From Escherichia coli (GTDB lineage: Bacteria > Pseudomonadota > Gammaproteobacteria > Enterobacterales > Enterobacteriaceae): 64,000 nt of DNA. Positions within the stretch are counted from its first letter, which is position 1. Each line of letters opens with the position of its first letter. The stretch is from assembly GCF_048403405.1 (NCBI RefSeq), contig NZ_CP183129.1; one strand, written 5' to 3'. A program made the position numbers and the translations under genes. The notes under the pieces are model-generated. The model did not search any database and was not told the origin of the DNA. It saw only the letters and a program-made list of their open reading frames with translations. Shown here in pieces: positions 24,471-64,000 of the stretch.

Positions 24471-24478
24471 ATTATTCC

Positions 24479-25852: not shown

Positions 25853-25855
25853 AAC

Positions 25856-28963: not shown

Positions 28964-30084
28964 CAGGCGTTGCCTCCATTAGCCTGAACTTCAACAGCCT
29001 TGACGGTCTGCCCTGAAGTGACTTTGGCAGAACCTTCAACAATCAGTCGGTCGCCGTTGTGCAGGCCGTTCAGCACCAGCCATTTATCACCATACGTTTC
29101 TCCCGTTTCGAGCGTTCGCTGCTCTACTTTATTGTCTTTATTCACCACCAGCGCAGTTGCATTGCCTTTAGCATCGCGCGTGACGCCCTGTTGCGGCGCG
29201 AGAATAGCGTCTTCCATCACGCCTTCATCGACACGAGCGCGAACAAACATTCCCGGTAATAACTGCTGTTGTGGATTGGGGAAAATCGCCCGTAATGTCA
29301 CCGAACCGGTAGACTCATCTACAGCGACTTCGGTGAGTTCCAGACGCCCTTTTTCGCTGTAGGTTGTGCCATCTTCCAGAATAAGTGAGACGCTCATGGT
29401 GTCACTGTTGGTCGCCAGTGACTGTTTACGCAGACGTAATAAATCGACACTGGAGCGAGTGAGGTCGACATACATTGTCTCCAGACCACGAATAGTCGTT
29501 AACGCTGTATCTTGCGACGCGGTCACCAGTGCGCCAGGGGTTACCGACGAAATGCCAATTCGCCCTGAAATCGGTGCGGTTACCGTGGTCCAGTCAAGAT
29601 TAATGCGCGCAGTTTCCAGCGCGGCTTTTTTCGCCTCTACACTGGCTTTATCTTGTGCACAGGTAGACTGAGCATCATCAGCATCCTGTTGTGAAACACC
29701 GTTCTCTTTCACCAGTCGGGCATAACGCTGCGCTTTCTGGCAATCGGCTTTTACCAGTGCCTGTGCTTGTTGTAATGCTGCCCGAGCTTCATTCCATGCA
29801 GCCTGATAACTGACCGCATCAATCTGGTAGAGAGGCTGTCCAGCCTTGACCAGATCCCCTTCCTTAAATAAGCGTTTCTGGATAATTCCCCCAACCTGCG
29901 GACGTACTTCAGCACTGAGCGCAGCACTGGTGCGTCCGGTTAATTCACTGACTACCGAGACCGGTTGAGATTTGACTGTAACAACGCCGACTTCTGTTTC
30001 TGACGGGGATGAATTGTTACTTTGCGTATTATCACAACCAGATAAGAGCAGCATTGCCACTACAGATGTTGCTATATACTTCAT
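28963..30084 (-). CDS. RND efflux membrane fusion protein (periplasmic adaptor lipoprotein)
   Basis: ORF track 28963..30117; start refined to ATG 30082-30084 (373 aa) preceded by GGAG; lipobox LLSGC; AcrA/MexA-like; stop overlaps the RND start. Confidence 0.85.
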   Translation of the reverse strand: MKYIATSVVAMLLLSGCDNTQSNNSSPSETEVGVVTVKSQPVSVVSELTGRTSAALSAEVRPQVGGIIQKRLFKEGDLVKAGQPLYQIDAVSYQAAWNEARAALQQAQALVKADCQKAQRYARLVKENGVSQQDADDAQSTCAQDKASVEAKKAALETARINLDWTTVTAPISGRIGISSVTPGALVTASQDTALTTIRGLETMYVDLTRSSVDLLRLRKQSLATNSDTMSVSLILEDGTTYSEKGRLELTEVAVDESTGSVTLRAIFPNPQQQLLPGMFVRARVDEGVMEDAILAPQQGVTRDAKGNATALVVNKDNKVEQRTLETGETYGDKWLVLNGLHNGDRLIVEGSAKVTSGQTVKAVEVQANGGNA

Positions 30085-30111
30085 TATTTTCTCCAGGGTG
30101 AGAAATACCCT

Positions 30112-30131
30112 CCTCATTAAAATTAATGAGG
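30112..30131. promoter_or_regulatory. Candidate TetR-family operator upstream of the efflux operon
   Basis: Inverted repeat CCTCATTAA-aa-TTAATGAGG with perfect 9-bp arms between the TetR gene and the MFP gene; further palindromes at 30169-30184 and 30195-30212. Confidence 0.35.
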
Positions 30132-30232
30132 ATATGTCAGGGATATTCAGTTATAACGAACCCGCATCGCGAAATGAATTTCGCAATGAAATAAGGGGGA
30201 TTAATATCCCCCGCTATTGGTTAATTCTGTTC

Positions 30233-30799
30233 TTATTTATTTATCAACATACTAACAATATCCTGATATATTTCCTGCAGATGTTGTGGATCGCTTTTTT
30301 GCGGTGTTAAACGACGATAAACCGTACCTTCCATCATGGTAGCAAACACTTCAACGCAGCAACGAATGTGCTCGTCGCTAAGATGGGGATGCATTCTTTT
30401 CATATGTGCACAACCGTTAGCGAACATTCTGGCGTCAGCTTCTTCAAGCATTGCCATAACCCGCGGGTTGCGTGTGGCTTCTGCAGCCACTTCCAGCATC
30501 AGCGCGTCGTCGTCCTCATTTAAGGATTTACGCAAGGCAAGGACTTCCGGGAAGTGATCGGTACGCGCGTCAATGTCCATTTGGGCAATACGAAAGTCGA
30601 TGATACGGCGAACCATCTCTTCAATAATGGCGTCTTTGTTGGCGAAGTAACGATATATCTGACCCACGCTAAGCTGAGCTTCGCTGGCAATTTGCGACAT
30701 ACTGGCGGCATGAAACCCGCAGCGACGAAAACACCGACGGGCGGCGTTAATGATTTCATCCTGACGCTGTTTGTGGCGTATCTCCAGCTTGCTGGTCAT
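30233..30799 (-). CDS. TetR/AcrR-family transcriptional regulator
   Basis: ORF track 30233..30898; start refined to ATG 30797-30799 (188 aa) preceded by AGGAGA; N-terminal TetR HTH (SMSQIASEAQLSVGQIYRYFANKD). Confidence 0.8.
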   Translation of the reverse strand: MTSKLEIRHKQRQDEIINAARRCFRRCGFHAASMSQIASEAQLSVGQIYRYFANKDAIIEEMVRRIIDFRIAQMDIDARTDHFPEVLALRKSLNEDDDALMLEVAAEATRNPRVMAMLEEADARMFANGCAHMKRMHPHLSDEHIRCCVEVFATMMEGTVYRRLTPQKSDPQHLQEIYQDIVSMLINK

Positions 30800-46483: not shown

Positions 46484-46855
46484 AGCTCCTCCTTAATGAC
46501 AGGGTTGCGAAGCCCTGATTCTCTTCAGGGTGAATATTAAAGATAACACAAACATCGCGTAACGATTTGATAACAACCCAAATTGATAAAAGAGGAGAAA
46601 GCTTGTGGCAAAACAAATGAAAACCCCGCCGCAGCGGGGTCAGGGATCAGTGAGTAATGATCCAGAGGAGTTCGGCCCAGAAGAGCATCGACAGAGAAAA
46701 TGCGCCCATCCAGGACCAATATTTCATATTTGTGTTGATCATAGGCTACACCTTTAACGGTTATTACTTTGTGTTGAGATAACTCAACCTGTTATTGCTG
46801 CGGTGTATTAAAAGCCCTGTAATTCATTAAAAATGGGTAATAAGAATGATGATAA

Positions 46856-48668: not shown

Positions 48669-51307
48669 TTATTTTTTCCCTTCAACCCATTTGCCATCAA
48701 CATAAAATGCTGACCAGCCAGTCGCCTTTCCGTCTTTTTCCGAAGAGACATATTGCTGTTTGGTTTTACGGCTAAAGCGAACCATGGTCTTATTACCTTC
48801 CGGATCCTGCTGTGGCGCATCGGCCAGATAACGCAGTTTTTCCGGCAGACGGTCGCGGAAGCGATAAAGCTCTTCCACCAATGGCGCGCGTGTTTCACGC
48901 GATTTCGGGAAGGTATTGGCCGCCAGGAACACACCGGCAGCACCGTCACGCAGCACGAAATAGGCATCTGATTTTTCGCACGGCAGCTCCGGTAATGGCA
49001 CCGGATCTTCCTTCGGTGGTGCCACTTCGCCGTTACGTAAAATCTTACGTGTGTTTTTACACTCTTCGTTAGTGCAGGCCATGTATTTACCGAAACGTCC
49101 CATTTTCAGGTGCATTTCAGAGCCACATTTTTCACACTCAACGATCGGGCCGTCATAACCTTTAATGCGGAATTCGCCCTCTTCGATCTCGTAACCGTCG
49201 CAGGTTGGGTTATTACCACAGACATGCAACTTACGTTTCGGATCGATGAGATAGCTGTCCATCGCCGTGCCGCATTTCGGGCAACGACGTTTTGCGCGCA
49301 GCGCGTTGGTTTCAGCGTCTTCACCTTCCAGCACGTTCAGCACTTCGTTTTCCGGCACCAGGTTGATGGTGGTTTTGCAACGCTCTTTCGGTGGCAGAGC
49401 GTAGCCGGAACAGCCAAGGAATACCCCGGTGCTCGCTGTGCGAATACCCATTTTGCGACCACAGGTCGGGCAGTCGATGCTGGTCAGAACCATCTGGTTC
49501 GGGCGCATCCCCCCTCTTCCGGATCTTTTTCAGCTTTATCTAACTGCTGGGTGAAATCCGAGAAGAAGTGATCCAGTACAGCTTTCCACTCTGCTTCGTG
49601 ATTTGCCACCTGGTCGAGGCTGTTTTCCATCTGTGCGGTGAAGTCGTAGTTCATTAACTCACGGAAATTCTCTTCCAGGCGATCGGTGACGATTTCGCCC
49701 ATTTTTTCCGCATAGAAACGACGATTTTCTACTCGCACATAGCCACGATCCTGAATGGTCGAAATGATCGACGCATAGGTAGACGGACGACCGATACCGC
49801 GTTTTTCCAGCTCTTTAACCAGCGATGCTTCACTAAAACGGGCTGGCGGCTTGGTAAAGTGCTGGGCTGGTGTCAGTTCAACGAGCGTCAGAGCATCGCC
49901 TTTATCGACTGCCGGTAATATACGATCTTCATCGCCTTTACGCAGTGCAGGCATCACTTTTGTCCAGCCATCAAAGCGCAAAATACGACCGCGTGCTTTC
50001 AGGCGGAAATCGCCCGCACCAACGGTCAGCGTCGTGGAGTCATATTTCGCTGGGGTCATCTGGCAGGCAACGAACTGACGCCAGATTAACTGGTACAATT
50101 TTTGCGCATCTGCTTCCATATCCTTCAACGATTCCGCCATCACATTGACGTCAGAAGGACGAATCGCTTCGTGCGCTTCCTGTGAGTTTTCTTTGCTGGC
50201 GTACTGATTCGGACTTTCCGGCAGATATTTCTTACCAAAATTATCGCTGATATAACCGCGAACCATATTTACCGCGTCCTGACTCAGGTTGGTGGAGTCG
50301 GTACGCATGTAAGTGATATAGCCTGCTTCATACAAACGCTGCGCCATCATCATGGTTTTTTTCACGCCAAAACCAAGACGGGTGCTGGCAGCTTGTTGCA
50401 GCGTAGAGGTAATAAAAGGAGCGCCAGGTTTACTGGTTGTCGGTTTGTCTTCACGTTCCAGCACGCTGTAGCGCGCTTTTTCCAGCAGACTTACCGCAGC
50501 CTGTGTTTGTTCTTTGTTGACCGGGCGGAACGGTTTGTCGTTCTGATGAGTCACCTGCAACGCCAACGCATCACCAGATGGCGTGGTCGTGCTGGCATCG
50601 ACTTCCCAGAACTCTTCCGGTACGAACGCTTTAATTTCACGCTCACGCTCGACCACCAGGCGGACCGCCACCGACTGCACACGACCTGCAGACAGACCAC
50701 GAGCGATCTTTTTCCACAGCAGCGGCGAAACCATATATCCCACCACGCGGTCCATAAAGCGACGCGCCTGCTGGGCATTAACACGATCAATATTCAGCTC
50801 ACCTGGTTTGTTAAATGCCTGGCGGATCGCGTTTTTAGTAATTTCGTTAAACACCACTCGGCTATAGCGCGCATCATCACCACCAATCACTTCCCGCAGG
50901 TGCCATGCAATGGCTTCCCCTTCGCGGTCAAGGTCGGTTGCGAGATAGATGTGGTCGGCTTTTTCAGCCAGTTGTTTCAGTTCAGAGACGACCTTCTCTT
51001 TACCAGGCAACACTTCATAGTGCGCCTCCCAATTGTGCCACGGGTCAACCCCCATACGGTTGACGAGAGCGCCACGTTCATCCTTTTTAGGCTTTTTAGC
51101 CGTCTTGGTGGAGGTAGAGTCGGCACTCTTTTTGGCAGCTGAGCCACTGGTCGGCAAATCGCGGATGTGACCGACGCTGGATTTCACCACGTAGTCACTA
51201 CCCAGATACTTGTTGATCGTTTTGGCTTTTGCCGGGGACTCAACGATGACAAGAGCTTTACCCATATTCACCTTACCTAATTTGATTCTTCCAGGAATGC
51301 GTCGCAC
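48669..51307 (-). pseudogene. topA: DNA topoisomerase I, reading frame interrupted by an apparent single-nucleotide frameshift
   Basis: Two adjacent minus-strand ORFs (49484..51307, 607 aa with the TOPRIM/catalytic core; 48669..49508, 279 aa with the Zn-ribbon C-terminal region) overlap in different frames at a C6 run (49509-49514). Could be a genuine mutation or an assembly error. Confidence 0.7.
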
Positions 51308-51644
51308 GTTGATAAACCTTCCACTGGCAACGAGTTACCGATATGGACTCGCTCTCTGCGGATATCAACCCCTTGTCGTGACTCTGTTCACGAAAATTCA
51401 GGTGACTGAGTTAACAGGTCTTGGCCTACAGGCGCTATAGCACGACGGAATTTTGGTCGAATGTCAAGCAAATCTATTGCCAGATTGACGAAAGCGTCAC
51501 ACTGTACCTGATAAAATCCGATACGCAACTTTATTAGCATGCAAAATCCAAAGTTGCCAGTAAGGCGCTCTTGCCACCAGCGTGGTATATTTGTCTGCAA
51601 GCCATGCCTGGCGTAGACTAATGTCCTTGTTTAAGGAGTAAATA

Positions 51645-51896
51645 ATGAACAAAGAGACACAACCCATCGACCGCGAGACGCTGTTGAAAGAGGCCAACAA
51701 AATCATTCGTGAGCATGAGGATACGCTCGCAGGGATTGAAGCCACCGGCGTCACGCAGCGTAATGGCGTGCTGGTATTTACCGGCGACTACTTTTTAGAT
51801 GAACAAGGATTGCCAACAGCCAAAAGCACCGCGGTGTTTAATATGTTCAAACACCTGGCCCATGTGCTTTCAGAAAAATATCATCTGGTTGATTAA
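51645..51896 (+). CDS. yciN: Small conserved protein YciN
   Basis: 83-aa ORF; synteny next to topA. Confidence 0.85.
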
Positions 51897-51936
51897 ATAA
51901 ATATCCTCCGGCATAGCCGGAGGTTTTTCAAATGCG

Positions 51937-52640
51937 CCTATAAGGCTCTCTTACCAGCCGCGCCCTAACAGGCGCACACGATCTGACATTTGCATCCAAC
52001 TTCGTTACTTACGGCCCGTAAACGGGCTGCCCGGATAGGGAATCGATAACTGCTCTCCCATTTTATCCTCTTCAAGCTGGTGCTTTATGTAATCCTGTAT
52101 CTTCGCCGTGTTCTTACCCACCGTATCGACGTAGTACCCTCTGCACCAGAACTCCCTGTTCCTGTATTTGAATTTCAAATCACCAAACTGCTCGTAAAGC
52201 ATCAGACTGCTTTTCCCTTTCAGATATCCCATAAAGCCGGATACGCTCATTTTGGGCGGGATCTCCACAAGCATATGGATATGATCTGCACAGCATTCAG
52301 CTTCCAGAATCCGTACACTTTTCCACTCACACAGCTTTCTCAAAATACTGCCTATTGCTCTACGCTTCTCTCTGTAGAACACCTGTCTTCGGTATTTTGG
52401 CGCAAAAACTATGTGATATTTACAGTTCCATCGGGTGTGCGCTAAGCTCTTTTCGTTCCCCATTGGGACCCCCTTTTGATTTCTTGTTTGACACTTGCAG
52501 TTGCCAGACCGCAAGGTGTTTTAACAAATCAAAAGGGGTTTTAATAACTGGCTTAAAGCTGAAAGCTTTCCGGAACCCCCAGCCTAGCTGGGGGTTTTCT
52601 GTGCACAAACAAAACGCGAGGTCTTAGCCTCGCGTTTGTC
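51937..52640 (-). mobile_element. IS200-like insertion sequence (IS200/IS605 family), approximate boundaries
   Basis: Contains a Y1 transposase gene plus the characteristic stem-loops (52576-52596 and 52611-52636); not present between yciN and sohB in K-12. Ends estimated from the expected ~0.7 kb size. Confidence 0.7.
52005..52463 (-). CDS. tnpA: IS200 transposase TnpA (HUH Y1 transposase)
   Basis: ORF track 52005..52514; start refined to ATG 52461-52463 (152 aa MGNEKSLAHTRWNCKYHIVFAPKYRR...), HxH motif (HIHMLVEIPP). Confidence 0.85.
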   Translation of the reverse strand: MGNEKSLAHTRWNCKYHIVFAPKYRRQVFYREKRRAIGSILRKLCEWKSVRILEAECCADHIHMLVEIPPKMSVSGFMGYLKGKSSLMLYEQFGDLKFKYRNREFWCRGYYVDTVGKNTAKIQDYIKHQLEEDKMGEQLSIPYPGSPFTGRK

Positions 52641-52642
52641 TT

Positions 52643-53692
52643 TTACATCAATGGTTTTTGCCCCCGCTGCCACCAGCGTAACAACAATCGATCGGCGCTC
52701 TCTGCCGCGCTGCCGGTGAATCGGTCAATGAGTCGTTTACGCTGCATATAGCGTACATTGACCACTTCACGGCCTTCCATCAGGCTAAGAATAACTTCAT
52801 CACTGGTGTTGATTTCATCAACCAGGCCTTTCTCTACCGCCTGTTGTCCGTACCAGTGTTCACCCGTTGCCACCTGATCAATATTCAGAGACGGACGCAT
52901 ACGCTTCACAAAATCTTTAAATAACTGATGCGTTTCGTTCAGCTCTTCGCGGAATTTCTCCCGCCCTTCTTCGGTGTTTTCACCCAGCAAAGTCAGCGTG
53001 CGCTTATACTGCCCGGCGGTGTGCAGTTCGATATCAATATCTTTGCTTTTCAGGAAGCGGTTAAAGTTGGGCATTTGTGCCACCACGCCAATGGAACCCA
53101 CAATAGCAAACGGTGCGGAAACAATTTTGTCCGCCACACAGGCCATCATGTAACCGCCACTGGCAGCAACTTTGTCTACCGTAACAGTTAAAGGAATGTT
53201 TTTATCACGCAGACGCTGCAGCTGCGAAGCCGCCAGCCCGTAACCATGCACCATGCCACCAGGGCTTTCCAGACGTAGCACAACCTGATCCTGCGGTTTG
53301 AATGCTGCGAGTACCGCCGTTATCTCTTCACGTAGCGAGTTCACTTCATGGGCGTCCATGCTGCCTTTAAAATCCAGCACCCAGACGCGAGGTTTACTGT
53401 CAGTTGCCACCTCGCCCAGTTTGGCTTTCGCTTTTGCTGCTTTCGCTTCTTGCTTGTGCTTTTTCTTCTGCGCTTTGTGCCACTGTTTTTGCTGATGTGA
53501 GTCCATCAGCGCCGCGGCCAGTTCTTCTTTCATCTCCTTATACTGTTCGCTGAGATTGTTGACCCGTAACTCGCCACGCTGGCGTTTATTACGTTGAGCA
53601 ACATTGACAATAATGGCGGCAATCGCCGCAATCGCTAGCACAACGGTAACGATTTTCGCCAAAAACAAACCATATTCAGACAACAATTCCAC
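52643..53692 (-). CDS. sohB: Inner-membrane peptidase SohB (S49 family)
   Basis: 349-aa ORF with N-terminal TM and ClpP/S49 peptidase domain. Confidence 0.9.
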   Translation of the reverse strand: MELLSEYGLFLAKIVTVVLAIAAIAAIIVNVAQRNKRQRGELRVNNLSEQYKEMKEELAAALMDSHQQKQWHKAQKKKHKQEAKAAKAKAKLGEVATDSKPRVWVLDFKGSMDAHEVNSLREEITAVLAAFKPQDQVVLRLESPGGMVHGYGLAASQLQRLRDKNIPLTVTVDKVAASGGYMMACVADKIVSAPFAIVGSIGVVAQMPNFNRFLKSKDIDIELHTAGQYKRTLTLLGENTEEGREKFREELNETHQLFKDFVKRMRPSLNIDQVATGEHWYGQQAVEKGLVDEINTSDEVILSLMEGREVVNVRYMQRKRLIDRFTGSAAESADRLLLRWWQRGQKPLM

Positions 53693-53911
53693 GAGTCCCC
53701 ACCTTGGTTAAACAACGCTTTGGCTCACAGTTTACAACAGGCATGTTAAGCCGTCTCGCAGAGATGTTATTGCAGCGAAAGTATGACAAAGTATCCATTT
53801 TGCGGTGTTATCGCCCCAGGCTGATTGAAATGCCCTTCTGTTTCAGGCATAAAGCCCCAAAGTCATAAAGTACACTGGCAGCGCGACAGACAACGTCGTT
53901 GAGGAGTAGCC

Positions 53912-54670
53912 ATGCATTACCAGCCAAAACAAGATTTACTCAATGATCGCATTATCCTGGTGACGGGAGCCAGCGATGGTATTGGCCGTGAAGCCGCGAT
54001 GACGTATGCACGCTATGGTGCGACAGTGATTCTGTTGGGCCGTAATGAAGAAAAATTACGTCAGGTAGCCAGCCACATAAACGAAGAAACTGGACGTCAG
54101 CCACAGTGGTTTATTCTCGATTTGCTGACCTGCACGTCCGAAGATTGCCAACAACTGGCACAGCGCATTGCCGTTAATTATCCGCGTCTGGATGGTGTTT
54201 TGCATAATGCCGGATTGCTCGGCGATGTTTGCCCAATGAGCGAACAAAATCCGCAGGTCTGGCAGGACGTCATGCAGGTCAACGTTAATGCCACCTTTAT
54301 GCTCACCCAGGCACTGCTTCCTTTATTACTCAAATCGGACGCCGGTTCACTGGTCTTTACTTCATCAAGCGTTGGACGTCAGGGACGAGCCAACTGGGGC
54401 GCATATGCAGCGTCGAAATTTGCCACCGAAGGGATGATGCAGGTACTGGCCGATGAATATCAGCAGCGCCTGCGCGTCAACTGCATTAACCCAGGCGGTA
54501 CGCGCACCGCAATGCGGGCCAGCGCCTTCCCGACCGAAGATCCACAGAAACTTAAAACACCCGCTGATATCATGCCGCTCTACCTCTGGCTGATGGGCGA
54601 TGACAGCCGCCGTAAAACCGGCATGACCTTTGACGCCCAACCGGGCCGTAAACCAGGAATTTCCCAATGA
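53912..54670 (+). CDS. yciK: Short-chain dehydrogenase/reductase
   Basis: 252-aa SDR ORF with TGASDGIG cofactor-binding motif; overlaps btuR start. Confidence 0.88.
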   Translation: MHYQPKQDLLNDRIILVTGASDGIGREAAMTYARYGATVILLGRNEEKLRQVASHINEETGRQPQWFILDLLTCTSEDCQQLAQRIAVNYPRLDGVLHNAGLLGDVCPMSEQNPQVWQDVMQVNVNATFMLTQALLPLLLKSDAGSLVFTSSSVGRQGRANWGAYAASKFATEGMMQVLADEYQQRLRVNCINPGGTRTAMRASAFPTEDPQKLKTPADIMPLYLWLMGDDSRRKTGMTFDAQPGRKPGISQ

Positions 54671-55257
54671 GTGATGAACGCTACCAACAGCGTCAGCAGC
54701 GAGTGAAAGAAAAAGTCGATGCTCGTGTGGCCCAGGCCCAGGATGAACGCGGTATTATCATCGTTTTTACCGGCAATGGAAAAGGCAAAACCACCGCGGC
54801 ATTTGGTACGGCAACTCGTGCAGTAGGCCATGGCAAAAAAGTGGGTATCGTGCAGTTTATTAAAGGCACCTGGCCTAATGGCGAGCGCAATCTACTGGAG
54901 CCACATGGCGTTGAGTTTCAGGTGATGGCAACGGGCTTTACCTGGGATACACAAAATCGCGAATCTGATACCGCGGCCTGCCGTGAAGTCTGGCAACATG
55001 CCAAACGAATGCTGGCCGATCCTTCACTGGATATGGTTTTGCTCGATGAGCTGACTTATATGGTGGCGTATGATTATTTGCCACTGGAAGAAGTGGTGAA
55101 GGCGTTAAATGAACGTCCACATCAGCAAACCGTCATTATTACGGGTCGTGGTTGTCATCGGGATATACTTGAACTGGCGGATACGGTAAGTGAATTACGC
55201 CCCGTGAAACATGCGTTTGATGCCGGTGTAAAAGCGCAGATAGGGATTGACTACTAA
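54667..55257 (+). CDS. btuR: Cob(I)yrinic acid a,c-diamide adenosyltransferase
   Basis: 196-aa ORF with P-loop GNGKGKTTAA, CobA family. Confidence 0.9.
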   Translation: MSDERYQQRQQRVKEKVDARVAQAQDERGIIIVFTGNGKGKTTAAFGTATRAVGHGKKVGIVQFIKGTWPNGERNLLEPHGVEFQVMATGFTWDTQNRESDTAACREVWQHAKRMLADPSLDMVLLDELTYMVAYDYLPLEEVVKALNERPHQQTVIITGRGCHRDILELADTVSELRPVKHAFDAGVKAQIGIDY

Positions 55258-55260
55258 GTG

Positions 55261-55294
55261 AAAGCACCTCAAAAGAAGCCTCTTGAGGTGCTTT
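55261..55294. terminator. Stem-loop between convergent btuR and the inserted two-gene cassette
   Basis: 12-bp inverted repeat AAAGCACCTCAA / TTGAGGTGCTTT immediately after the btuR stop. Confidence 0.5.
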
Positions 55295-55308
55295 AATCAT
55301 GATTATAT

Positions 55309-55617
55309 TCAAGCGGCAATAGCGAAATTCAGAATACGTGTAATCTCATTCAAATGTCCCGGATATGCTTCATGATTCTCAGCGTCAACATCTTCAATAA
55401 ATAATATCAGTTCAGTAATTAACGCATTAGCATCGTCATAATTTATCCCGGCTAACTCTGGCGAAGTTTCAGTACCATAGTTAATCGTCAGGTTGTTCAT
55501 AACTGTGAGGATATGGATAAAATATTTATGACAAACATTACATGTGGTTTTATTACCCAAAGTATTATACAGCATATCAAGTAATGCCAATATTCTACGG
55601 TTTTGCACATCGTTCAT
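55309..55617 (-). CDS. Hypothetical small acidic cytoplasmic protein (102 aa), function unknown
   Basis: ORF with ATG start 6 nt after an AGGAGG Shine-Dalgarno that overlaps the stop of the upstream lipoprotein gene; AT-rich; no family recognised. Confidence 0.6.
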   Translation of the reverse strand: MNDVQNRRILALLDMLYNTLGNKTTCNVCHKYFIHILTVMNNLTINYGTETSPELAGINYDDANALITELILFIEDVDAENHEAYPGHLNEITRILNFAIAA

Positions 55618-55627
55618 AAAAAGCCTC

Positions 55628-56629
55628 CTATAACATTATTCCGCTGGCAATAAGTAATTTTGCCAGCCCCTCAGACGCCTTTAACCCACTAATGACCTGT
55701 GCGCGTAATATTTCATTTAATCTTTTTTGTTCAGCTGCCGTGCGTGTTTTATTAACGTATAAGCTTTTTAGATAATCACCCTTATCTATAAAGGCATTTA
55801 AAGCCTCAATCGCAGGCATGGCAGGTGCCGATGCCTGTAGTCTGGTTTCATTCACATTGATTACTGAACTTAGAAACTCCTTCCTGTTTTTCAGAGTGTT
55901 AAACTCTGTATTCTTAGAGTTTTTAGATGCTGTATTATAATAAAACATATTATCATGCACATTCGCAAAGGTATAATTTTCAATCTTATTGCTTTTTGTA
56001 TAAATATCATTGCGCAAAACCGCCATGTTCTTTATAAGTCTTACCCAGTTTTCATCTGCCGTTTTGCCTATTTTTCCAGAATTGACTTTAATTATATATA
56101 ACTCATTGAAATAATTTACCAAATCTTTAACCGCTGCTGCAGATTGAGCTAAATCTTTGCTATGTGAAACACCAAGTAGTGTTTGTGCGTTGTTTGCGTG
56201 ATCCAGAGCCTGTTTAAGTAATGCCACTTGCTGACTTTCCGTAGTTGCCATATCCTTTGTCAGAAGTTCCACATAAGCGCTCATGCTATTAATGACTTCC
56301 ATTGAAGCCAGTAATTTTTCTTTCTCGAAAGGGACTAATTGTACTTGTTTTGTATTTGGCCCTGAACGCTGGCATAATTTTCCGCCATTCCCATCACCGC
56401 CTATATCAATGGTATAATCAGGTCGCAATGCACAATCCGGATTAGTCGCGTAGAAATTAACAAGGAAGTTTTCACGAGAAGCATAGTATTGTTTAAAGAA
56501 ACTTGCATTCGCCGCTACTGCTTTGTTACCCGCAGTAATAACAGTTTCAGCTTGTTCGTTTTTCAATGCTTCAGTTGCACAACCTGAAAGCATTAACAGC
56601 GATAGAAATATTCCACTATATCTAATCAT
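55628..56629 (-). CDS. Hypothetical lipoprotein (333 aa), function unknown
   Basis: ATG start with SD GAGGTG; signal peptide plus lipobox LMLSGC (Cys17); N/K-rich, AT-rich coding sequence; no family recognised. Confidence 0.65.
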   Translation of the reverse strand: MIRYSGIFLSLLMLSGCATEALKNEQAETVITAGNKAVAANASFFKQYYASRENFLVNFYATNPDCALRPDYTIDIGGDGNGGKLCQRSGPNTKQVQLVPFEKEKLLASMEVINSMSAYVELLTKDMATTESQQVALLKQALDHANNAQTLLGVSHSKDLAQSAAAVKDLVNYFNELYIIKVNSGKIGKTADENWVRLIKNMAVLRNDIYTKSNKIENYTFANVHDNMFYYNTASKNSKNTEFNTLKNRKEFLSSVINVNETRLQASAPAMPAIEALNAFIDKGDYLKSLYVNKTRTAAEQKRLNEILRAQVISGLKASEGLAKLLIASGIML

Positions 56630-56798
56630 AACCCACCTCTTGACGTTGAGTTTATCTCAGATAATTAAATAGTAATGTGGCTATTTCCGGGTATTATTCA
56701 TAAGCAAGTATGAAATTAAATTAAAATACTGCGACTATTTATCATGCTTCAAATGAAGAAAAGGCCCCGCAGGGCCTTTATTTTATACTTATCTTAAA

Positions 56799-57674
56799 TT
56801 AACCGTTATTATTACGTCCGCCAGAACGACGACCGCCGCTCACCTGACTGTGACGCTTAACCGCTCGACGAATCTGATTCGCCTTCATACGACGACGGTC
56901 TTTTTCTACAGCGACTTTAGAGCTGGTTTCTGGCGGTAGCTCCACCAGTTCGCGCAGATAGTTAGTCTGGGCGAGGTCCAGCTCCGTCCAGCCACCGCGT
57001 GGCAGACCTTTCGGCAGTGGGATATCACCGTAACGAACACGGATCAGGCGGCTTACCTGCACACCAACCGCTTCCCAAAGACGACGAACTTCACGGTTAC
57101 GGCCTTCGGTCAGAGTTACGTTGTACCACTGGTTGATCCCTTCGCCGCCGCTGAACTTGATGGTTTTAAAGGCTGCCGGACCATCTTCCAGCTGCACGCC
57201 ACGACTCAAATCACGCAGTTTCGCGTCGTCAACCTGACCAAATACACGCACGGCATATTCACGTTCAACTTCACGGCTTGGATGCATTAAACGGTTTGCC
57301 AGTTCACCGTCGGTGGTGAACAGCAGCAGACCACAGGTGTTAACGTCCAGACGACCTACGGCAATCCAGCGTGCGCCACGCAGCTTTGGCAGACGGTCAA
57401 ACACCGTTGGACGCCCTTCCGGATCGTTACGGGTACACAACTCACCTTCCGGTTTGTAATAGGCCAGAACGCGACAAATTTGTTCAGCGGACTCACGTAC
57501 CGAAATCAGGTGACCATCGATACGGATTTTCAATCCAGGTGTAACTTCAACGCGATCGCCGAGTTTAGCAATTTTGCCATCAACACTCACACGACCGGCT
57601 TCAATAATAGATTCGATTTCACGGCGAGAACCGTGGCCGGCACGCGCCAGCACTTTCTGTAGCTTTTCGCTCAT
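56799..57674 (-). CDS. rluB: 23S rRNA pseudouridine(2605) synthase
   Basis: 291-aa ORF with S4 domain and RsuA-family catalytic domain, Arg/Gly-rich C-terminal tail. Confidence 0.9.
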
Positions 57675-57884
57675 AGAGCTTCCTTTTGGTGTCGCCTTCC
57701 CAGGCGTCTGATATGCTTTTGTGCAACAGTGAGTCAGAACTTACATCTGACTCACTGATAGTAAAGTCTGTTTGAACTCTTCAGGCCTTAAGTAAACGAC
57801 TCGACGTTTATCGGCCTGGCTTTGAGGCGCAACATACTACACTATCTTTATGGTTAAAGCTTGTTTCGATTAACATCAGCTTGA

Positions 57885-59789
57885 TTACCAGCCACCGCCG
57901 CCTCCGCCACCTGCACCGCCACCAGCACCACCACCGGAATAGCTACGCCCCAACAAACTGGTATAGGCCCCGCAACTCAGGTGCGTCTGTAATGAGAATA
58001 AAACGCCACTACGGGCAATTTCCGGGGCGCGAACAGCCGCTGTGAGTGATGGGGTGATACGTGCTGCCCATTCTCTGCCAAGGTTTGCCGAGACCGCCCA
58101 ACCTAACAACGCGTAATCCAGTTTCCGTGTTTCCCCTTTCCGCCGCCGCCCACTGTGTGTTGCTGCCTCTTTACGCGCAAGATAGTTAACGATAGCTTCA
58201 CCGTGGACATAACGTTGCTGCCCAGTTTGGGTAAACTTTGGCAGAAAAATATACCCCAAGCCAGTGAGATAACCGGTCAGGACAACAGCGCTAAAATAAC
58301 CCGCTGGCATATACCAGTAAAAGAATACATCTCCGACATTGATATAGAGAGAATAAAAGGCCACGCCTGAACAAATCAGCGGTAAAAACAAAGTGATGAT
58401 TACACGATTAACGCAAGGCTTGTCATCATCGCGGGCAAACACAAGCTCAAGGGAACAAAATAAAAAAGGAAGAAGCCAGCAGATCATAATAAACATATCG
58501 CCCACCAGACTCATTCCTGCCCAGCCTACGGGACTCAGGTTACCGTAGAGAATGACCGCTAATATCGCCATTCCCCCCCATTGCAAAAACGCATCAGGTC
58601 GGTAAAACGAAGACTTTTTACGCGGCAGATAAAATTTCTGCATCCGTAAAAATGCCCTGCGTAAGACTCTGTTGCGTCTCCCCGTAAGAACGACCTTATC
58701 GCCTTTACGAAATAACGCTTCCAGTAATAACTGCTCTGCGGGCAGTAATACCGCATTATTTCTGGTCGCGCCTTCATTAACACGAATCAGGATTTGCTGG
58801 TTCTTATCATACTGATCTTCCAGATGAATTTTGCCTTTCACAATCAGATTTACGATATCGGCACAAAAACCTTTATCGTCGTAAACCAGCTTCGCATCGA
58901 GACGTAACATGCCGGGCGTGTAATCTGGCGGAATGACATCGGTTTCAATCACATCTACCGGCGTAAATTGCGGCCTGCGCTTCCAGAGATATAACCATCC
59001 ACAAACCAGGAATAGACACGGAAACCAAATTAACAACGATGACGTGGAGGGTAAAAGAAGATGGCTGAAAATATTCGTCGTTTGTGGAGCCGGGGCATTG
59101 CTAAGTAAAGCGTGAGGCCAGCGGTAGAGTACCGTGAAATCTTCACGATAAAACGGATCGCGGGATTCAATTCTTCCGTCCTCAAGGATGCGGCCATTTC
59201 GATATGTGTCGCCCTCTTCTCCAGTAAAGAGATCGATTTCGCTAAATGGATTACCCGCGATATCAGGGAACTTGAGTGAAAATCGGGTCTTATAGATTTC
59301 AAACGGCCAGTGGTTACCGGTCACGTTCCAGATTAACAGATCTGAATCTCCCTCACGCAGGAAAGCATTTTTAACCTGATAATGAATTTGATAATGATAG
59401 TCGCCTTGAGGCAAGAAACGTTGTTTATCGCCCACGACGATACTCATTAAACCGATATGCCAGTCAAGATGCCAGGGTTCAGGAACACCATCACGGGTGA
59501 CGCCAACAATATGATAGTTCAGCAGTGCAGCGTCCCCATCAGGCTGCATCCAGAGTCGTGGTAAATCACGATAAAATCCGTGCTTAATCTGCTGATTTCG
59601 CGCCTGAAAATGAATATTTTCTTTGATGTCGAGCCCCCCATCCGGTTGCAGAGTGGCTTCAACATCAAAGAGCGAGATCCCTTCTTCATAAAAAGGGATC
59701 TCCGTGTTTTTCGGATAACTCAACGAAGAGAAAAAAGCCCAACTATCAACAGCAAAATGCAGCGATATATCCCTGCCATAGTCTTCCAT
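57885..59789 (-). CDS. yciQ: DUF2207-family inner-membrane protein
   Basis: 634-aa ORF with multiple TM segments and a Gly/Ala-rich C-terminal tail; synteny. Confidence 0.85.
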   Translation of the reverse strand: MEDYGRDISLHFAVDSWAFFSSLSYPKNTEIPFYEEGISLFDVEATLQPDGGLDIKENIHFQARNQQIKHGFYRDLPRLWMQPDGDAALLNYHIVGVTRDGVPEPWHLDWHIGLMSIVVGDKQRFLPQGDYHYQIHYQVKNAFLREGDSDLLIWNVTGNHWPFEIYKTRFSLKFPDIAGNPFSEIDLFTGEEGDTYRNGRILEDGRIESRDPFYREDFTVLYRWPHALLSNAPAPQTTNIFSHLLLPSTSSLLIWFPCLFLVCGWLYLWKRRPQFTPVDVIETDVIPPDYTPGMLRLDAKLVYDDKGFCADIVNLIVKGKIHLEDQYDKNQQILIRVNEGATRNNAVLLPAEQLLLEALFRKGDKVVLTGRRNRVLRRAFLRMQKFYLPRKKSSFYRPDAFLQWGGMAILAVILYGNLSPVGWAGMSLVGDMFIMICWLLPFLFCSLELVFARDDDKPCVNRVIITLFLPLICSGVAFYSLYINVGDVFFYWYMPAGYFSAVVLTGYLTGLGYIFLPKFTQTGQQRYVHGEAIVNYLARKEAATHSGRRRKGETRKLDYALLGWAVSANLGREWAARITPSLTAAVRAPEIARSGVLFSLQTHLSCGAYTSLLGRSYSGGGAGGGAGGGGGGGW

Positions 59790-59806
59790 CCGTGGAACGC
59801 AATTTG

Positions 59807-60427
59807 TTATAAGAAAGGCTTCACATCACCTACGCCTTCACGCACCACGACCGGCGTATCATCAGTAAGATCAATAACCGTTGTTGGTTTCTGCCCGAGA
59901 TAGCCGCCGTGAATAATCAAGTCCACCTGTTTTTCCAGACGGTCTTTAATTTCTTCCGGATCGGATTCGGTAAATTCGCTGCCTGGCAGCATTAGCGAAG
60001 TGGAAAGCATCGGTTCGCCCAGTGCTTCAAGCAACGCCTGCGCAATCGGGTTAGAAGGCACACGCATACCGATGGTTTTGCGTTTTTCCTGCAACAGACG
60101 GCGTGGCACCTCCTTCGTCCCTTTCAGGATGAAGGTGTAGTTGCCCGGCGTGTTGTTTTTCATCAAACGAAACGCAACGTTATCCACGAATGAATAGGTC
60201 GAGAGCTCAGAAAGATCGCGACACATCAGGGTAAAGTTGTGACCGTCCGGCAGCTGGCGAATTCGACAAATACGCTCCATGGCGTTTTTATCTTCAATTT
60301 TACAGCCGAGCGCATAGCCGGAATCGGTTGGATAAACAATCACCCCGCCTTTACGCACGATCTCCACCGCCTGGTTGATCAGACGTTGCTGCGGATTATC
60401 AGGATGAATATAAAAAAACTGGCTCAT
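59807..60427 (-). CDS. yciO: YrdC/Sua5-family RNA-binding protein
   Basis: ORF track 59807..60463; start refined to ATG 60425-60427 (206 aa MSQFFYIHP...). Confidence 0.85.
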   Translation of the reverse strand: MSQFFYIHPDNPQQRLINQAVEIVRKGGVIVYPTDSGYALGCKIEDKNAMERICRIRQLPDGHNFTLMCRDLSELSTYSFVDNVAFRLMKNNTPGNYTFILKGTKEVPRRLLQEKRKTIGMRVPSNPIAQALLEALGEPMLSTSLMLPGSEFTESDPEEIKDRLEKQVDLIIHGGYLGQKPTTVIDLTDDTPVVVREGVGDVKPFL

Positions 60428-61305
60428 AATTCCCTCTCTGTGGTGTTCTGCGGCTGTTCCCATAGCTGCCAGACGCCTTCAACGCCTGCGGGCAGCCAGA
60501 GTTTACGACCCAGTTCGATCCACGGGCATGGCTGATGAAAATCAGATCCTTGTGATGCCCATAAATGATGCTGACGCGCAAGTGTCGCCAGCTGGGTGCG
60601 TTCATTGGGCGATTGCTGGCACTGCGCGACTTCCATCGCGTCGCCGTGGTGTTCGGCAAAATGCGCAACCAATCTTTTCAGCCATTTAGCACTAAGATTG
60701 TACCGCCCAGGATGAGCTAGCACCGCCTTACCGCCAGAATGATGAATGACATCAATAGCTTGTTCTATTGTACACCACTGTGGCGGAACGTATCCGGTTT
60801 TCCCGCGCGCCAGATATTTTTTAAAGACATCCGCCATTGAACTGGCTTTGCCGCACTCCACAAGGAAACGCGCAAAATGACCGCGCGTCACCGCACCGCC
60901 CTGCGCCAGTCGTTGCGCGCCTTCCAGTGCCCCAGGTATTTGCGCTTTTTCAAGTCTTTCGGCAATCAGCTGCGCCCGCTGATTGCGCCGTTCTGTCTGC
61001 TGCGCGAGGAACTCACACATTAGCGGATGAGTAATATCAATATTCAGCCCGACAATATGAATTTCATGATTTTCCCAGACCGTGGAGATTTCCACGCCGG
61101 GAATAAGATTCAGCGCCAGTCCCGAACGTGAAATTTCCTCTCTTGCTGGTGAGATTGCAGCTGTGGTGTCATGGTCGGTGATCGCCAGGGTGCCGACGCG
61201 CATCTCGACTGCACGGTGCACCAATGCTTCTGGCGTCAGGCAGCCATCGGAAGCTGTGGTATGGCTGTGCAGGTCGTAAATCACTGCGTAATTCGTGTCG
61301 CTCAA
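60424..61305 (-). CDS. trpH: PHP-domain 5'-3' exoribonuclease (TrpH/YciV/Rnm)
   Basis: 293-aa ORF with PHP histidine motifs (YDLHSHTTASDG). Confidence 0.88.
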   Translation of the reverse strand: MSDTNYAVIYDLHSHTTASDGCLTPEALVHRAVEMRVGTLAITDHDTTAAISPAREEISRSGLALNLIPGVEISTVWENHEIHIVGLNIDITHPLMCEFLAQQTERRNQRAQLIAERLEKAQIPGALEGAQRLAQGGAVTRGHFARFLVECGKASSMADVFKKYLARGKTGYVPPQWCTIEQAIDVIHHSGGKAVLAHPGRYNLSAKWLKRLVAHFAEHHGDAMEVAQCQQSPNERTQLATLARQHHLWASQGSDFHQPCPWIELGRKLWLPAGVEGVWQLWEQPQNTTEREL

Positions 61306-61380
61306 GGCGCACTCCCGTTCTGGATAATGTTTTTTGCGCCGACATCATAACGGTTCTGGCAAATATTCTGAAATGAGCTG

Positions 61381-61416
61381 TTGACAATTAATCATCGAAC
61401 TAGTTAACTAGTACGC
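61381..61416 (+). promoter_or_regulatory. trp promoter (-35 TTGACA, -10 TTAACT) with overlapping TrpR operator
   Basis: TTGACAATTAATCATCGAACTAGTTAACTAGTACG: canonical trp promoter and the ACTAGTTAACTAGT operator palindrome. Confidence 0.85.
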
Positions 61417-61442
61417 AAGTTCACGTAAAAAGGGTATCGACA

Positions 61443-61487
61443 ATGAAAGCAATTTTCGTACTGAAAGGTTGGTGGCGCACTTCCTGA
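61443..61487 (+). CDS. trpL: trp operon leader peptide
   Basis: ATGAAAGCAATTTTCGTACTGAAAGGTTGGTGGCGCACTTCCTGA encodes [14 protein letters not shown] with tandem Trp codons. Confidence 0.88.
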
Positions 61488-61528
61488 AACGGGCAGTGTA
61501 TTCACCATGCGTAAAGCAATCAGATACC

Positions 61529-61557
61529 CAGCCCGCCTAATGAGCGGGCTTTTTTTT
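61529..61557 (+). terminator. trp attenuator (3:4 terminator hairpin plus U-tract)
   Basis: AGCCCGCC-taat-GAGCGGGCT followed by TTTTTTTT, between trpL and trpE. Confidence 0.85.
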
Positions 61558-61578
61558 GAACAAAATTAGAGAATAACA

Positions 61579-63141
61579 ATGCAAACACAAAAACCGACTC
61601 TCGAACTGCTAACCTGCGAAGGCGCTTATCGCGACAACCCGACTGCGCTTTTTCACCAGTTGTGTGGGCATCGTCCAGCAACGCTGCTGCTGGAATCCGC
61701 AGATATCGACAGCAAAGATGATTTAAAAAGTCTGCTGCTGATAGACAGTGCGCTGCGCATTACAGCATTAGGTGACACTGTCACAATTCAGGCACTTTCC
61801 GGCAATGGCGAAGCCCTGCTGGCACTACTGGATAACGCCCTGCCTGCGGGTGTGGAAAGTGAACAATCACCAAACTGCCGTGTGCTGCGCTTCCCCCCTG
61901 TCAGTCCACTGCTGGATGAAGACGCCCGCTTATGCTCCCTTTCGGTTTTTGACGCTTTCCGCTTATTGCAGAATCTGTTGAATGTACCGAGGGAAGAGCG
62001 AGAAGCAATGTTCTTCGGCGGCCTGTTCTCTTATGACCTTGTGGCGGGATTTGAAGATTTACCACAACTGGCAGCGGAAAATAACTGTCCTGATTTCTGT
62101 TTTTATCTCGCTGAAACGCTGATGGTGATTGACCATCAGAAAAAAAGCACCCGCATTCAGGCCAGTCTTTTTGCTCCGAATGAAGAAGAAAAACAACGTC
62201 TCACTGCTCGCCTGAACGATCTTCGCCAGCAACTGACTGAAACCGCGCCACCGCTGCCGGTGGTTTCCGTGCCGCATATGCGTTGTGAATGTAACCAGAG
62301 CGATGAAGAGTTCGGTGGCGTAGTGCGTTTGTTGCAAAAAGCGATTCGCGCCGGAGAAATTTTCCAGGTCGTACCATCTCGCCGTTTCTCTCTGCCCTGC
62401 CCGTCACCGCTGGCGGCCTATTACGTGCTGAAAAAGAGTAATCCCAGCCCGTACATGTTTTTTATGCAGGATAATGATTTCACCCTGTTTGGCGCGTCGC
62501 CGGAAAGTTCGCTCAAGTATGACGCCACCAGCCGCCAGATTGAGATCTACCCCATTGCCGGAACACGTCCACGCGGTCGTCGTGCCGATGGTTCACTGGA
62601 CAGAGACCTCGACAGCCGCATCGAACTGGAAATGCGTACCGATCATAAAGAGCTTTCTGAACATCTGATGCTGGTGGATCTCGCCCGTAATGATCTGGCA
62701 CGCATTTGCACCCCCGGTAGTCGCTACGTCGCCGATCTCACCAAAGTTGACCGTTATTCTTATGTGATGCACCTCGTCTCCCGCGTGGTCGGTGAGCTGC
62801 GCCACGATCTCGACGCCCTGCACGCTTACCGCGCCTGTATGAATATGGGCACGTTAAGCGGCGCGCCGAAAGTGCGCGCCATGCAGTTAATTGCCGAGGC
62901 GGAAGGTCGTCGCCGCGGCAGCTACGGCGGCGCAGTAGGTTATTTCACCGCGCATGGCGATCTCGACACCTGCATTGTGATCCGCTCGGCGCTGGTGGAA
63001 AACGGTATCGCCACCGTGCAAGCCGGTGCTGGCGTGGTACTTGATTCTGTTCCGCAGTCGGAAGCCGACGAAACCCGTAATAAAGCCCGCGCTGTACTGC
63101 GCGCTATTGCCACCGCGCATCATGCACAGGAGACGTTCTGA
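61579..63141 (+). CDS. trpE: Anthranilate synthase component I
   Basis: 520-aa ORF, chorismate-binding enzyme; stop overlaps trpD start (TGATGG). Confidence 0.93.
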
Positions 63142-64000
63142 TGGCTGACATTCTGCTGCTCGATAATATCGACTCTTTTACTTACAACCTGGCAGATCAG
63201 TTGCGCAGCAATGGTCATAACGTGGTGATTTACCGCAACCATATTCCGGCGCAGACCTTAATTGAACGCCTGGCGACAATGAGCAATCCGGTGCTGATGC
63301 TTTCTCCTGGCCCCGGTGTGCCAAGCGAAGCCGGTTGTATGCCAGAACTCCTCACCCGCCTGCGCGGCAAGCTGCCAATTATTGGCATTTGCCTCGGTCA
63401 TCAGGCGATTGTCGAAGCTTATGGGGGGTATGTCGGTCAGGCGGGCGAAATTCTTCACGGTAAAGCGTCGAGTATTGAACATGACGGTCAGGCGATGTTT
63501 GCCGGATTAACAAACCCATTGCCAGTGGCGCGTTATCACTCGCTGGTTGGCAGTAACATTCCGGCCGGTTTAACCATCAACGCCCATTTTAATGGCATGG
63601 TGATGGCGGTGCGTCACGATGCAGATCGCGTTTGTGGATTCCAGTTCCATCCGGAATCCATTCTTACTACCCAGGGTGCTCGCCTGCTGGAACAAACGCT
63701 GGCCTGGGCGCAGCAGAAACTGGAACCGACCAACACGCTGCAACCGATTCTGGAAAAACTGTATCAGGCGCAGACCCTTAGCCAGCAGGAAAGTCACCAG
63801 CTGTTTTCAGCGGTGGTACGTGGCGAACTGAAACCGGAACAACTGGCGGCGGCGCTGGTGAGCATGAAAATTCGCGGCGAGCACCCGAACGAGATCGCCG
63901 GAGCAGCAACCGCGCTACTGGAAAACGCCGCGCCGTTCCCGCGCCCGGATTATCTGTTTGCTGATATCGTCGGTACTGGCGGTGACGGCAGTAACAGCAT
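63141..64000 (+). CDS. trpD: Anthranilate synthase component II / anthranilate phosphoribosyltransferase, N-terminal part (runs off window end)
   Basis: Begins [21 protein letters not shown]..., glutamine amidotransferase domain with catalytic GICLGHQ; truncated by window edge. Confidence 0.9.

Follow-up and report, generated by a model that had tools for sequence, protein, structure and literature searches.

The 202 bp at positions 61377-61578 of the window, the whole 64,000-nucleotide stretch of Escherichia coli DNA that was analysed, are almost certainly the native regulatory region of the E. coli trpLEDCBA operon, which would control transcription at two levels. The trp control region is intact, already known and ordinary. 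A preliminary description made from the letters alone had named its classical elements, its interpretation is supported with no result that contradicts it, and all of the elements were located: a -35 TTGACA with a TrpR operator palindrome ahead of trpE (61381-86 and 61396-61415), a 14-codon leader with tandem Trp codons (61443-61487, codons at 61470-75) and a GC hairpin followed by a U8 terminator ahead of trpE (61530-61557).

Sequence identity and genomic context

Over the 202 bp there is 100% identity to E. coli K-12 MG1655. Of 5426 complete E. coli genomes, 5421 have the region, 5355 of them at an identity of at least 99%. RefSeq labels it there as trpL and 'Trp leader region', and the locus lies between rnm (trpH) and trpE. 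The K-12 trp promoter-operator, trpL and attenuator characterized by Yanofsky and co-workers occupy the same 202 positions within the same 273-bp intergenic region, with the same neighbours in the same orientation. The flanking genes are as follows.

60424-61305, - strand: rnm (trpH/yciV), the divergent upstream neighbour, a native context
61579-63141, + strand: trpE, anthranilate synthase component I, 520 aa, the first regulated structural gene
from 63141: trpD, which follows trpE

The upstream neighbours yciQ-yciO-rnm lie on the opposite strand, trpE-trpD lie downstream, and chromosomes such as that of strain 4621 align colinearly with the entire 64-kb window, from ycjQ to trpD, at ~100% identity. 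These observations bear on the idea that the region is not the native locus but a cloned or engineered trp promoter cassette of the kind carried by expression vectors. Vectors often include the trp promoter/operator, and the 202-bp sequence does have a few matches on plasmids (6 places), but here the full leader, the attenuator and trpE-trpD are present downstream and rnm-yciO-yciQ upstream, in the native divergent arrangement. The native context and the colinearity over 64 kb exclude an engineered cassette, which we regard as exceedingly improbable.

The regulatory region and its flanks differ in their relationship to K-12. There are no differences in the 273-bp rnm-trpE intergenic region, whereas trpE differs at 64 of 1563 bases (4.1%), 59 of them at third codon positions, with 6 amino acid substitutions. 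The other comparisons gave 15 differences in 882 bases for rnm (1.7%), 24 in 621 for yciO and 41 in 860 for the part of trpD in the window. At the divergence rate of trpE, the probability of finding zero differences in 273 bp is ~1e-5 by our own arithmetic. The intergenic identity would fit strong constraint on the regulatory sequence, and a recombination mosaic is another possible source of the identity to K-12. Among six natural E. coli variants sampled, the changes fall in the operator/promoter or at position -1, alter the length of the U tract (to T7) or replace A by G in the terminator loop (61539); no stem change was found in any of the six.

The use of this region as an internal control of sequence quality, proposed in the preliminary description, is justified by 273 bp without a difference from K-12 next to a trpE gene that has diverged. 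The absence of any difference from K-12 here, next to flanking genes that differ by 2 to 5%, shows that the window is accurate at this point and that it comes from a natural E. coli chromosome of a lineage other than K-12. The sole value of the region is as such a control, with a function known for every base and no base different from K-12.

The region could also be present with its regulation altered by changes elsewhere, such as an inactive trpR or variants of tRNA-Trp or TrpS. Nothing in the window supports this reading; TrpE with its six substitutions relative to K-12 indicates a diverged lineage, but the cis elements are identical to those of K-12. Altered regulation is considered very unlikely. 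The trpR gene is located far from the trp operon on the map and lies outside the 64-kb window.

Promoter, operator and transcription start

The elements that would govern initiation are listed below.

61381-61386, + strand: trp promoter -35 hexamer TTGACA, 6/6 against the consensus
61404-61409, + strand: trp promoter -10 hexamer TTAACT, 3/6 against TATAAT, separated from the -35 by a 17-bp spacer and located inside the operator
61396-61415, no strand: TrpR operator dyad CGAACTAGTTAACTAGTACG, 20 bp, with 9/10 symmetric pairs, covering the -10
61399-61412: operator core, a perfect 14-nt palindrome ACTAGTTAACTAGT with CTAG half-sites at 61400 and 61408
61417, + strand: transcription start +1 (A61417, mRNA AAGUUCACG...), placed from K-12 knowledge

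The -35 and -10 hexamers at a spacing of 16-18 bp, the CTAG dyad and the identity of the operator to that of K-12 point to a sigma-70 promoter repressed by TrpR. The trp operator has 0 differences from the experimentally defined K-12 MG1655 operator. A pattern search for TTGACA-N16-18-TTAACT gave one occurrence in the 64-kb window against 0.02 expected. CTAG-N4-CTAG also occurs once in the window against 0.29 expected, and CTAG itself is found only 17 times in the 64 kb. The half-site CTAGs of the trp operator are 8 bp apart, and the dyad overlaps the -10. Palindromy by itself is insufficient evidence for an operator, as the window contains three perfect 14-nt palindromes and five near-perfect 20-mers. 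The specificity of the promoter/operator call comes from the composite arrangement and from the identity to the K-12 sequence.

The trp promoter was missed by a generic sigma-70 scan of the window: the scan requires an A at position 2 of the -10 hexamer, and TTAACT, with 3 of 6 positions in agreement with TATAAT, has a T there. The specific composite pattern replaced the generic scan and found the promoter. This result serves as a calibration: generic promoter scans overlook the famous trp promoter.

The sigma-70 promoter overlaps the dyad operator in such a way that the two CTAG half-sites bracket the -10, and a tryptophan-bound TrpR dimer at the operator would exclude RNA polymerase. The location of TTAACT inside the operator indicates the manner in which TrpR would occlude the polymerase.

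The +1 position was placed at A61417, which we take to be the 5' end of K-12 trp mRNA (AAGUUCACG). This start lies 7 nt past the -10 and gives a leader of 162 nt to the trpE ATG, with the Trp codons at +54..+59, the stop codon at +69..+71 and the end of the U tract at +141. All of these are the textbook numbers. The start at 61417 also puts the end of the terminated transcript at ~+140, in agreement with the 140-nt rnTrpL (PMC12612679).

The trpL leader peptide gene and the attenuator

The leader contains a translatable short gene followed by the four segments of the attenuator.

~61430-34, + strand: trpL Shine-Dalgarno AAGGG, 9 nt upstream of the ATG
61443-61487, + strand: trpL leader peptide gene, 14 sense codons and a TGA stop, annotated trpL, WP_001700591.1
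61470-61475 (+54..+59), + strand: tandem Trp codons TGGTGG of trpL, the first nucleotides of helix 1:2
61464-61557, + strand: match to Rfam Trp_leader (RF00513), model positions 1-100 of 100
61470-61485 (+54..+69), + strand: segment 1, the 5' arm of helix 1:2, which includes the Trp codons
61490-61507 (+74..+91), + strand: segment 2, the partner of segment 1 or segment 3
61508 (+92), + strand: classical RNA polymerase pause site just 3' of helix 1:2, placed from K-12 knowledge
61523-61537 (+107..+121), + strand: segment 3, the partner of segment 2 (antiterminator) or segment 4 (terminator)
61542-61550 (+126..+134), + strand: segment 4, the 3' arm of the terminator hairpin
61530-61550, + strand: terminator stem of the attenuator, 7 to 8 pairs, 6 of them G-C
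61550-61557, + strand: T8 (U8) tract of the intrinsic terminator, 21 nt before the trpE ATG

Two of these features are unique in the window. trpL is the sole short ATG-initiated + strand open reading frame with adjacent Trp codons, and no T8 run other than that at 61550-61557 occurs on the + strand. The Rfam match scored 93.1 bits (E = 1e-19), above the gathering score of 41. Trp_leader was the only family matched in 58000-64000 at E values up to 1, and other RNA-family readings were rejected on this basis. Both helices modelled in RF00513 (1:2 and 3:4) are formed by the leader here. The RF00513 consensus represents the terminated conformation only and is without the 2:3 antiterminator and the helix that pairs with the Shine-Dalgarno sequence. 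A family score above the threshold, a leader open reading frame, three helices, an intrinsic terminator and a scheme conserved in homologues identify the region as a ribosome-mediated trp attenuator.

The general consensus for a polymerase pause is G-10 / Y-1 / G+1, and G82, U92 and G93 of the leader agree with it. Position +92 is presumably the classical pause site. PMC12288461, citing Winkler & Yanofsky 1981, covers how RNA polymerase pauses on the trp leader of E. coli.

The terminated leader of ~140 nt may have a second role, compatible with attenuation, as rnTrpL, an Hfq-dependent sRNA that base-pairs with dnaA mRNA and further targets. In E. coli the 140-nt rnTrpL is reported to lower the stability of dnaA mRNA and to act on sanA, mhpC, rsuA and bcr (PMC12612679, a review citing Li et al. 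2021). The sequence analysed here is identical to that of K-12, so the K-12 behaviour should hold here; the targets lie elsewhere in the genome, outside the window. We put the chances of this additional role at about even.

Leader RNA folding and the order of synthesis

The leader RNA was folded with ViennaRNA, energies were calculated for the listed pairs and stabilities were compared with those of dinucleotide shuffles. Helix 1:2 (+54-69:+75-91) has an energy of -15.5 kcal/mol (z = -2.1), helix 2:3 (+74-86:+107-119) has -15.6 kcal/mol (z = -3.6) and encloses a small hairpin (+92-94:+100-102), and helix 3:4 (+114-121:+126-134) has -14.0 kcal/mol (z = -4.1). The fold of +50..+141 has an energy of -33.3 kcal/mol, with z = -3.0 against the shuffles. 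Helices 1:2 and 2:3 overlap within +75-86, helices 2:3 and 3:4 overlap at +115-119, and helices 1:2 and 3:4 have no nucleotides in common. Formation of 2:3 thus excludes both 1:2 and 3:4, and 1:2 is compatible with 3:4.

One reading of the attenuator is an equilibrium RNA switch, in which a stalled ribosome shifts the minimum-energy fold from the terminator to the antiterminator. The isolated energies favour this reading slightly, with 2:3 (-15.6 kcal/mol) more stable than 3:4 (-14.0 kcal/mol). To represent the ribosome, its footprint when stalled at either Trp codon was forced single-stranded. Folding the complete +1..+141 RNA to its energy minimum gave the terminator in every ribosome-mask scenario, which argues against an equilibrium switch. 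The RNA from +73 to +141 also gave no advantage to the antiterminator: the two states are nearly iso-energetic, with the terminator at or below the antiterminator (-16.4 versus -15.6 kcal/mol), and are separated by a refolding barrier of ~5.8 kcal/mol in a direct-path estimate. The outcome is instead set by the order of synthesis. An equilibrium switch therefore appears highly improbable, and equilibrium folding of the masked +1..+141 RNA was discarded as an invalid test, since it gives the terminator in all scenarios.

Folding of growing transcripts together with the estimate of the refolding barrier replaced equilibrium folding as the test of the switch. When only the RNA on the 3' side of the stalled ribosome was folded, 2:3 had the lowest energy at every transcript end from +119 to +131. 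A preformed 2:3 stays more stable than any partial 3:4 helix until the last of the 8 pairs has emerged. In these models the antiterminator wins only before segment 4 has been made, and the predicted switch is kinetic and co-transcriptional, as in the classical model. Detection of the switch only in the co-transcriptional analysis is required by the classical kinetic model and is not counter-evidence. The outcome qualifies the folding check put forward in the preliminary description. Its expectation that alternative 1:2, 2:3 and 3:4 hairpins form and exclude one another was borne out, but the equilibrium fold is always the terminator. Its wording that a failure to fold into mutually exclusive structures would refute the attenuator proved too simple, as a purely thermodynamic reading 'fails' and the co-transcriptional analysis gives the switch. 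The attenuation switch is missed when equilibrium folding is used by itself, and the region provides a calibration on this point as well.

The sequence of events that these features would support starts with a 162-nt leader encoding a 14-residue TrpL with two adjacent Trp codons. A pause by RNA polymerase after helix 1:2 would allow a ribosome to load and would couple translation to transcription. With ample charged tRNA-Trp, the ribosome would reach the stop codon and cover segments 1 and 2, the 3:4 GC hairpin would form next to the U8 tract and transcription would stop near +140. When charged tRNA-Trp is scarce, the ribosome would stall at the Trp codons in segment 1, and 2:3 would pair before segment 4 is made. 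With 2:3 formed there would be no terminator, and the polymerase would read into trpE. For this system, binding by TrpR, the start of transcription, the polymerase pause and the response in vivo are established knowledge; the classical values are ~70-fold for repression and 8 to 10-fold for attenuation. The model combining TrpR with 2:3 / 3:4 attenuation is stated in PMC13178558, which also summarises the experimental read-through response to charged tRNA-Trp for the K-12 sequence.

Conservation of the leader in relatives

Species-representative genomes were scanned with the DNA pattern GGTTGGTGGCGCAC-N55-85-TTTTTT, which returned 59 loci. A short open reading frame ending ...GWWRT(S/W)... and a terminal hairpin are present at 42 of the 59. 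These 42 leaders come from Escherichia, Citrobacter, Enterobacter, Leclercia, a Raoultella-labelled metagenome-assembled genome (MAG), Erwinia, Pantoea, Affinibrenneria and Vibrio. Sixteen of the 59 matches are in unrelated phyla and were attributed to chance, with a convincing leader open reading frame, a terminator or both missing. The remaining match, in Dickeya, is ambiguous and could not be aligned past the seed.

Each of the 42 leaders was folded singly, and the free RNA adopted 1:2 and 3:4 in every case. When the first 22 nt were masked and the 3' arm of the terminator was withheld, 2:3 sequestered 5-10 nt of the 5' arm of the terminator in 42/42. An alignment-free test for alternative helices was positive for 42 of 43 related loci, the forty-third being Dickeya. 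The Vibrio leaders differ from that of E. coli in sequence; segments 2 and 4 are both GAGUGGGCUUU and each is complementary to AAAGCCCACUC. The Vibrio stems are a case of three-way compensation.

Column-wise counts on a MAFFT alignment were less informative. Four pairs of helix 2:3 change on both sides, a result matched in 71 of 500 shuffles and obtained with the register shifted by indels, and there was no excess covariation for 1:2 and 3:4 in the MAFFT alignment with its pattern-fixed segment 1. The covariation is weak because the search pattern fixed segment 1 and because indels shift the register in Erwinia and Vibrio. Per-sequence folding therefore replaced the column-wise counts. Column-wise covariation on a quick alignment understates a well-established structure, which is a third point of calibration.

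The leaders of Citrobacter, Enterobacter, Erwinia, Pantoea and Vibrio have in common with the leader here the G-W-W-R-T core, the three overlapping helices and a terminator with its U run. The peptides differ in length, with 14-16 aa in Escherichia, Citrobacter, Enterobacter, Erwinia and Pantoea, 21 aa in Affinibrenneria and 36 aa in Vibrio, where there are further Trp codons. The N-termini of the peptides vary among the trp leaders of Enterobacterales and Vibrio.

Comparison with other attenuators

The his, phe, thr, leu and ilv attenuators follow the same logic, with a short open reading frame rich in cognate codons, alternative helices and an intrinsic terminator. They differ from the leader here in their regulatory codons and belong to other Rfam families, none of which matched. 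Upstream of trpE in Bacillus subtilis, the trp leader likewise offers a choice between an antiterminator and a terminator hairpin (PMC13178558). The mode of sensing differs: in B. subtilis, TRAP acts on an array of GAG/UAG triplets, whereas the leader here has a translatable trpL and would be sensed by the ribosome. A TRAP-type array of 9 to 11 GAG/UAG triplets spaced 2-3 nt apart was sought in the 162-nt leader, which contains 3 such triplets with a longest regular chain of 1. The lack of a triplet array excludes a TRAP-type attenuator.

Pairing of the Shine-Dalgarno region with segment 3

The trpL Shine-Dalgarno region takes part in one further pairing.

61432-61438 (+16..+22), + strand: GGGUAUC, which overlaps the trpL Shine-Dalgarno sequence and pairs with GAUACCC at +107..+113

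GAUACCC is the 5' part of segment 3, and the GGGUAUC:GAUACCC pairing is present in all full-length minimum-energy folds. The lower half of the 2:3 antiterminator shares nucleotides with this pairing. In PNAS in 1983, Das, Urbanowski, Weissbach, Nestor and Yanofsky reportedly proposed that a pairing of this kind limits synthesis of the leader peptide. In addition to shutting leader translation on finished transcripts, the helix would compete with the lower half of 2:3. It could then be a conserved fourth alternative pairing that biases read-through, and the leader a four-state device that senses a second ribosome on the Shine-Dalgarno sequence. We hold this proposal to be tentative and rather unlikely; if it is true, only the coupling of the helix to the antiterminator would be new. 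In the Vibrio leaders, the helix does not rise above chance. An equivalent pairing of 7-11 contiguous pairs is found in 33 of 35 Enterobacterales leaders, a length that at most 2% of shuffles match, and an extension of the helix covaries in Erwinia and Pantoea (GGUAUCUGCAU:GUGCAGAUACU).

Predicted pairing of the trpL Shine-Dalgarno region with a distal leader segment

Every full-length fold of the trp leader RNA paired GGGUAUC in the Shine-Dalgarno region of trpL (61432-61438) with GAUACCC (61523-61529), a segment that lies immediately 5' of the terminator. The helix of 7-11 contiguous base pairs is kept in 33 of the 35 leaders from Enterobacterales, and it shares positions with the 2:3 antiterminator, in the lower half of that helix. 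Such pairing of the Shine-Dalgarno region with a distal segment was probably put forward already by Das et al. 1983.

The same pairing is no better than chance in the leaders from Vibrio. The leader open reading frames of these loci (L011, L018, L025, L026, L044, L053, L056, and L058) are 36 codons long, for example MLLDIHTIKKPLNRTVNSLQGWWRTWTQSEWAFLRA, and contain a tandem Trp pair followed by two more single Trp codons. Their terminator stems are longer, at 10 bp.

The trp control region and natural operator variants in E. coli

The trp control region (61377-61578) had no match in 5 of the 5426 complete E. coli genomes, and six of the matches in this collection are plasmid-borne. The unmatched genomes and the plasmid matches are possibly explained by trp deletion strains, F-primes, or vectors. 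The operator of E. coli Br_190_kylling (locus L064) has an 8-bp tandem duplication, AACTAGTT, aligned to 61397-61404 of the window, that creates a third CTAG half-site with the 8-bp phase unchanged. A TTAACT still lies 17 bp from the -35 element. The duplication might provide an extra tandem TrpR site and shift the start of transcription. The cattle isolate E. coli strain 134 (locus L066) has the left half-site changed from CTAG to CCAG (aligned to 61401) along with a T-to-C change in the spacer (aligned to 61389), and the half-site change looks like the operator-constitutive type.

The rnm-trpE intergenic region

The 273-bp region between rnm (trpH) and trpE (61306-61578) does not differ from E. 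coli K-12 MG1655, and the genes flanking it are 1.7-4.8% divergent from this reference. The 71 bp upstream of the trp -35 element (61306-61376) are invariant to the same degree. A promoter-like site lies on the opposite strand:

61344-61372, minus strand: promoter-like site TTCAGA-17-TATGAT, directed towards rnm (trpH)

The rnm start codon is the TTG at 61305. The site is possibly a divergent promoter that forms a back-to-back pair with the trp promoter.

Downstream of this region, TrpE (61579-63141) differs from the K-12 protein by six residue changes (D31H, V55I, K138R, S165A, E214D, and A222T). The TrpE proteins of strain 1190 and strain 4621, whose chromosome is near-identical and colinear, are annotated under the identical accession WP_001194614.1.

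The yciQ 5' end

One gene upstream of the trp region is altered at its start:

57885-59789, minus strand: yciQ, with an altered 5' end, especially at 59700-59789

Compared with K-12 and strain 1190, yciQ lacks 1 nt at its 5' end, and substitutions are densely clustered there, so that the long open reading frame opens at an upstream ATG (59789). This frame reads MEDYGRDISLHFAVDSW... where the K-12 ATG begins another reading frame. In our reading of the alignment, the K-12 start would encode a hydrophobic signal-type N-terminus that appears to be absent here. The PGAP annotation of strain 4621, which is near-identical, marks yciQ as frameshifted. The carboxy-terminal tail of the open reading frame is Gly-rich.

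Accessory genes and small RNA matches

Further features lie elsewhere in the window:

23307-30799, minus strand: accessory efflux cluster between sapF and fabI
46613-46815, minus strand: Rfam STnc180 small RNA match (201.6 bits), upstream of acnA
52006-52464, minus strand: IS200C transposase gene between yciN and sohB
52473-52596, minus strand: Rfam STnc490 match (146 bits), directly upstream of the IS200C transposase gene
55309-56629, minus strand: two adjoining uncharacterised genes (333 and 102 amino acids) between cobO and rluB

The two proteins encoded between cobO and rluB had no Pfam or PADLOC match, and only 424 of the 5426 E. coli genomes contain the complete gene pair. We read the N-terminal LSGC of the 333-residue protein as a putative lipobox. 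The cluster between sapF and fabI encodes an MFS transporter, an outer-membrane factor, an RND permease, an adaptor, and a TetR-family regulator; at least 80% of positions 25001-50000 is covered in only 2037 of the 5426 genomes. Positions 50001-64000 have many repeated and plasmid matches because the IS200C element is located there. The STnc180 match overlaps the small open reading frame ymiC (46647-46742).
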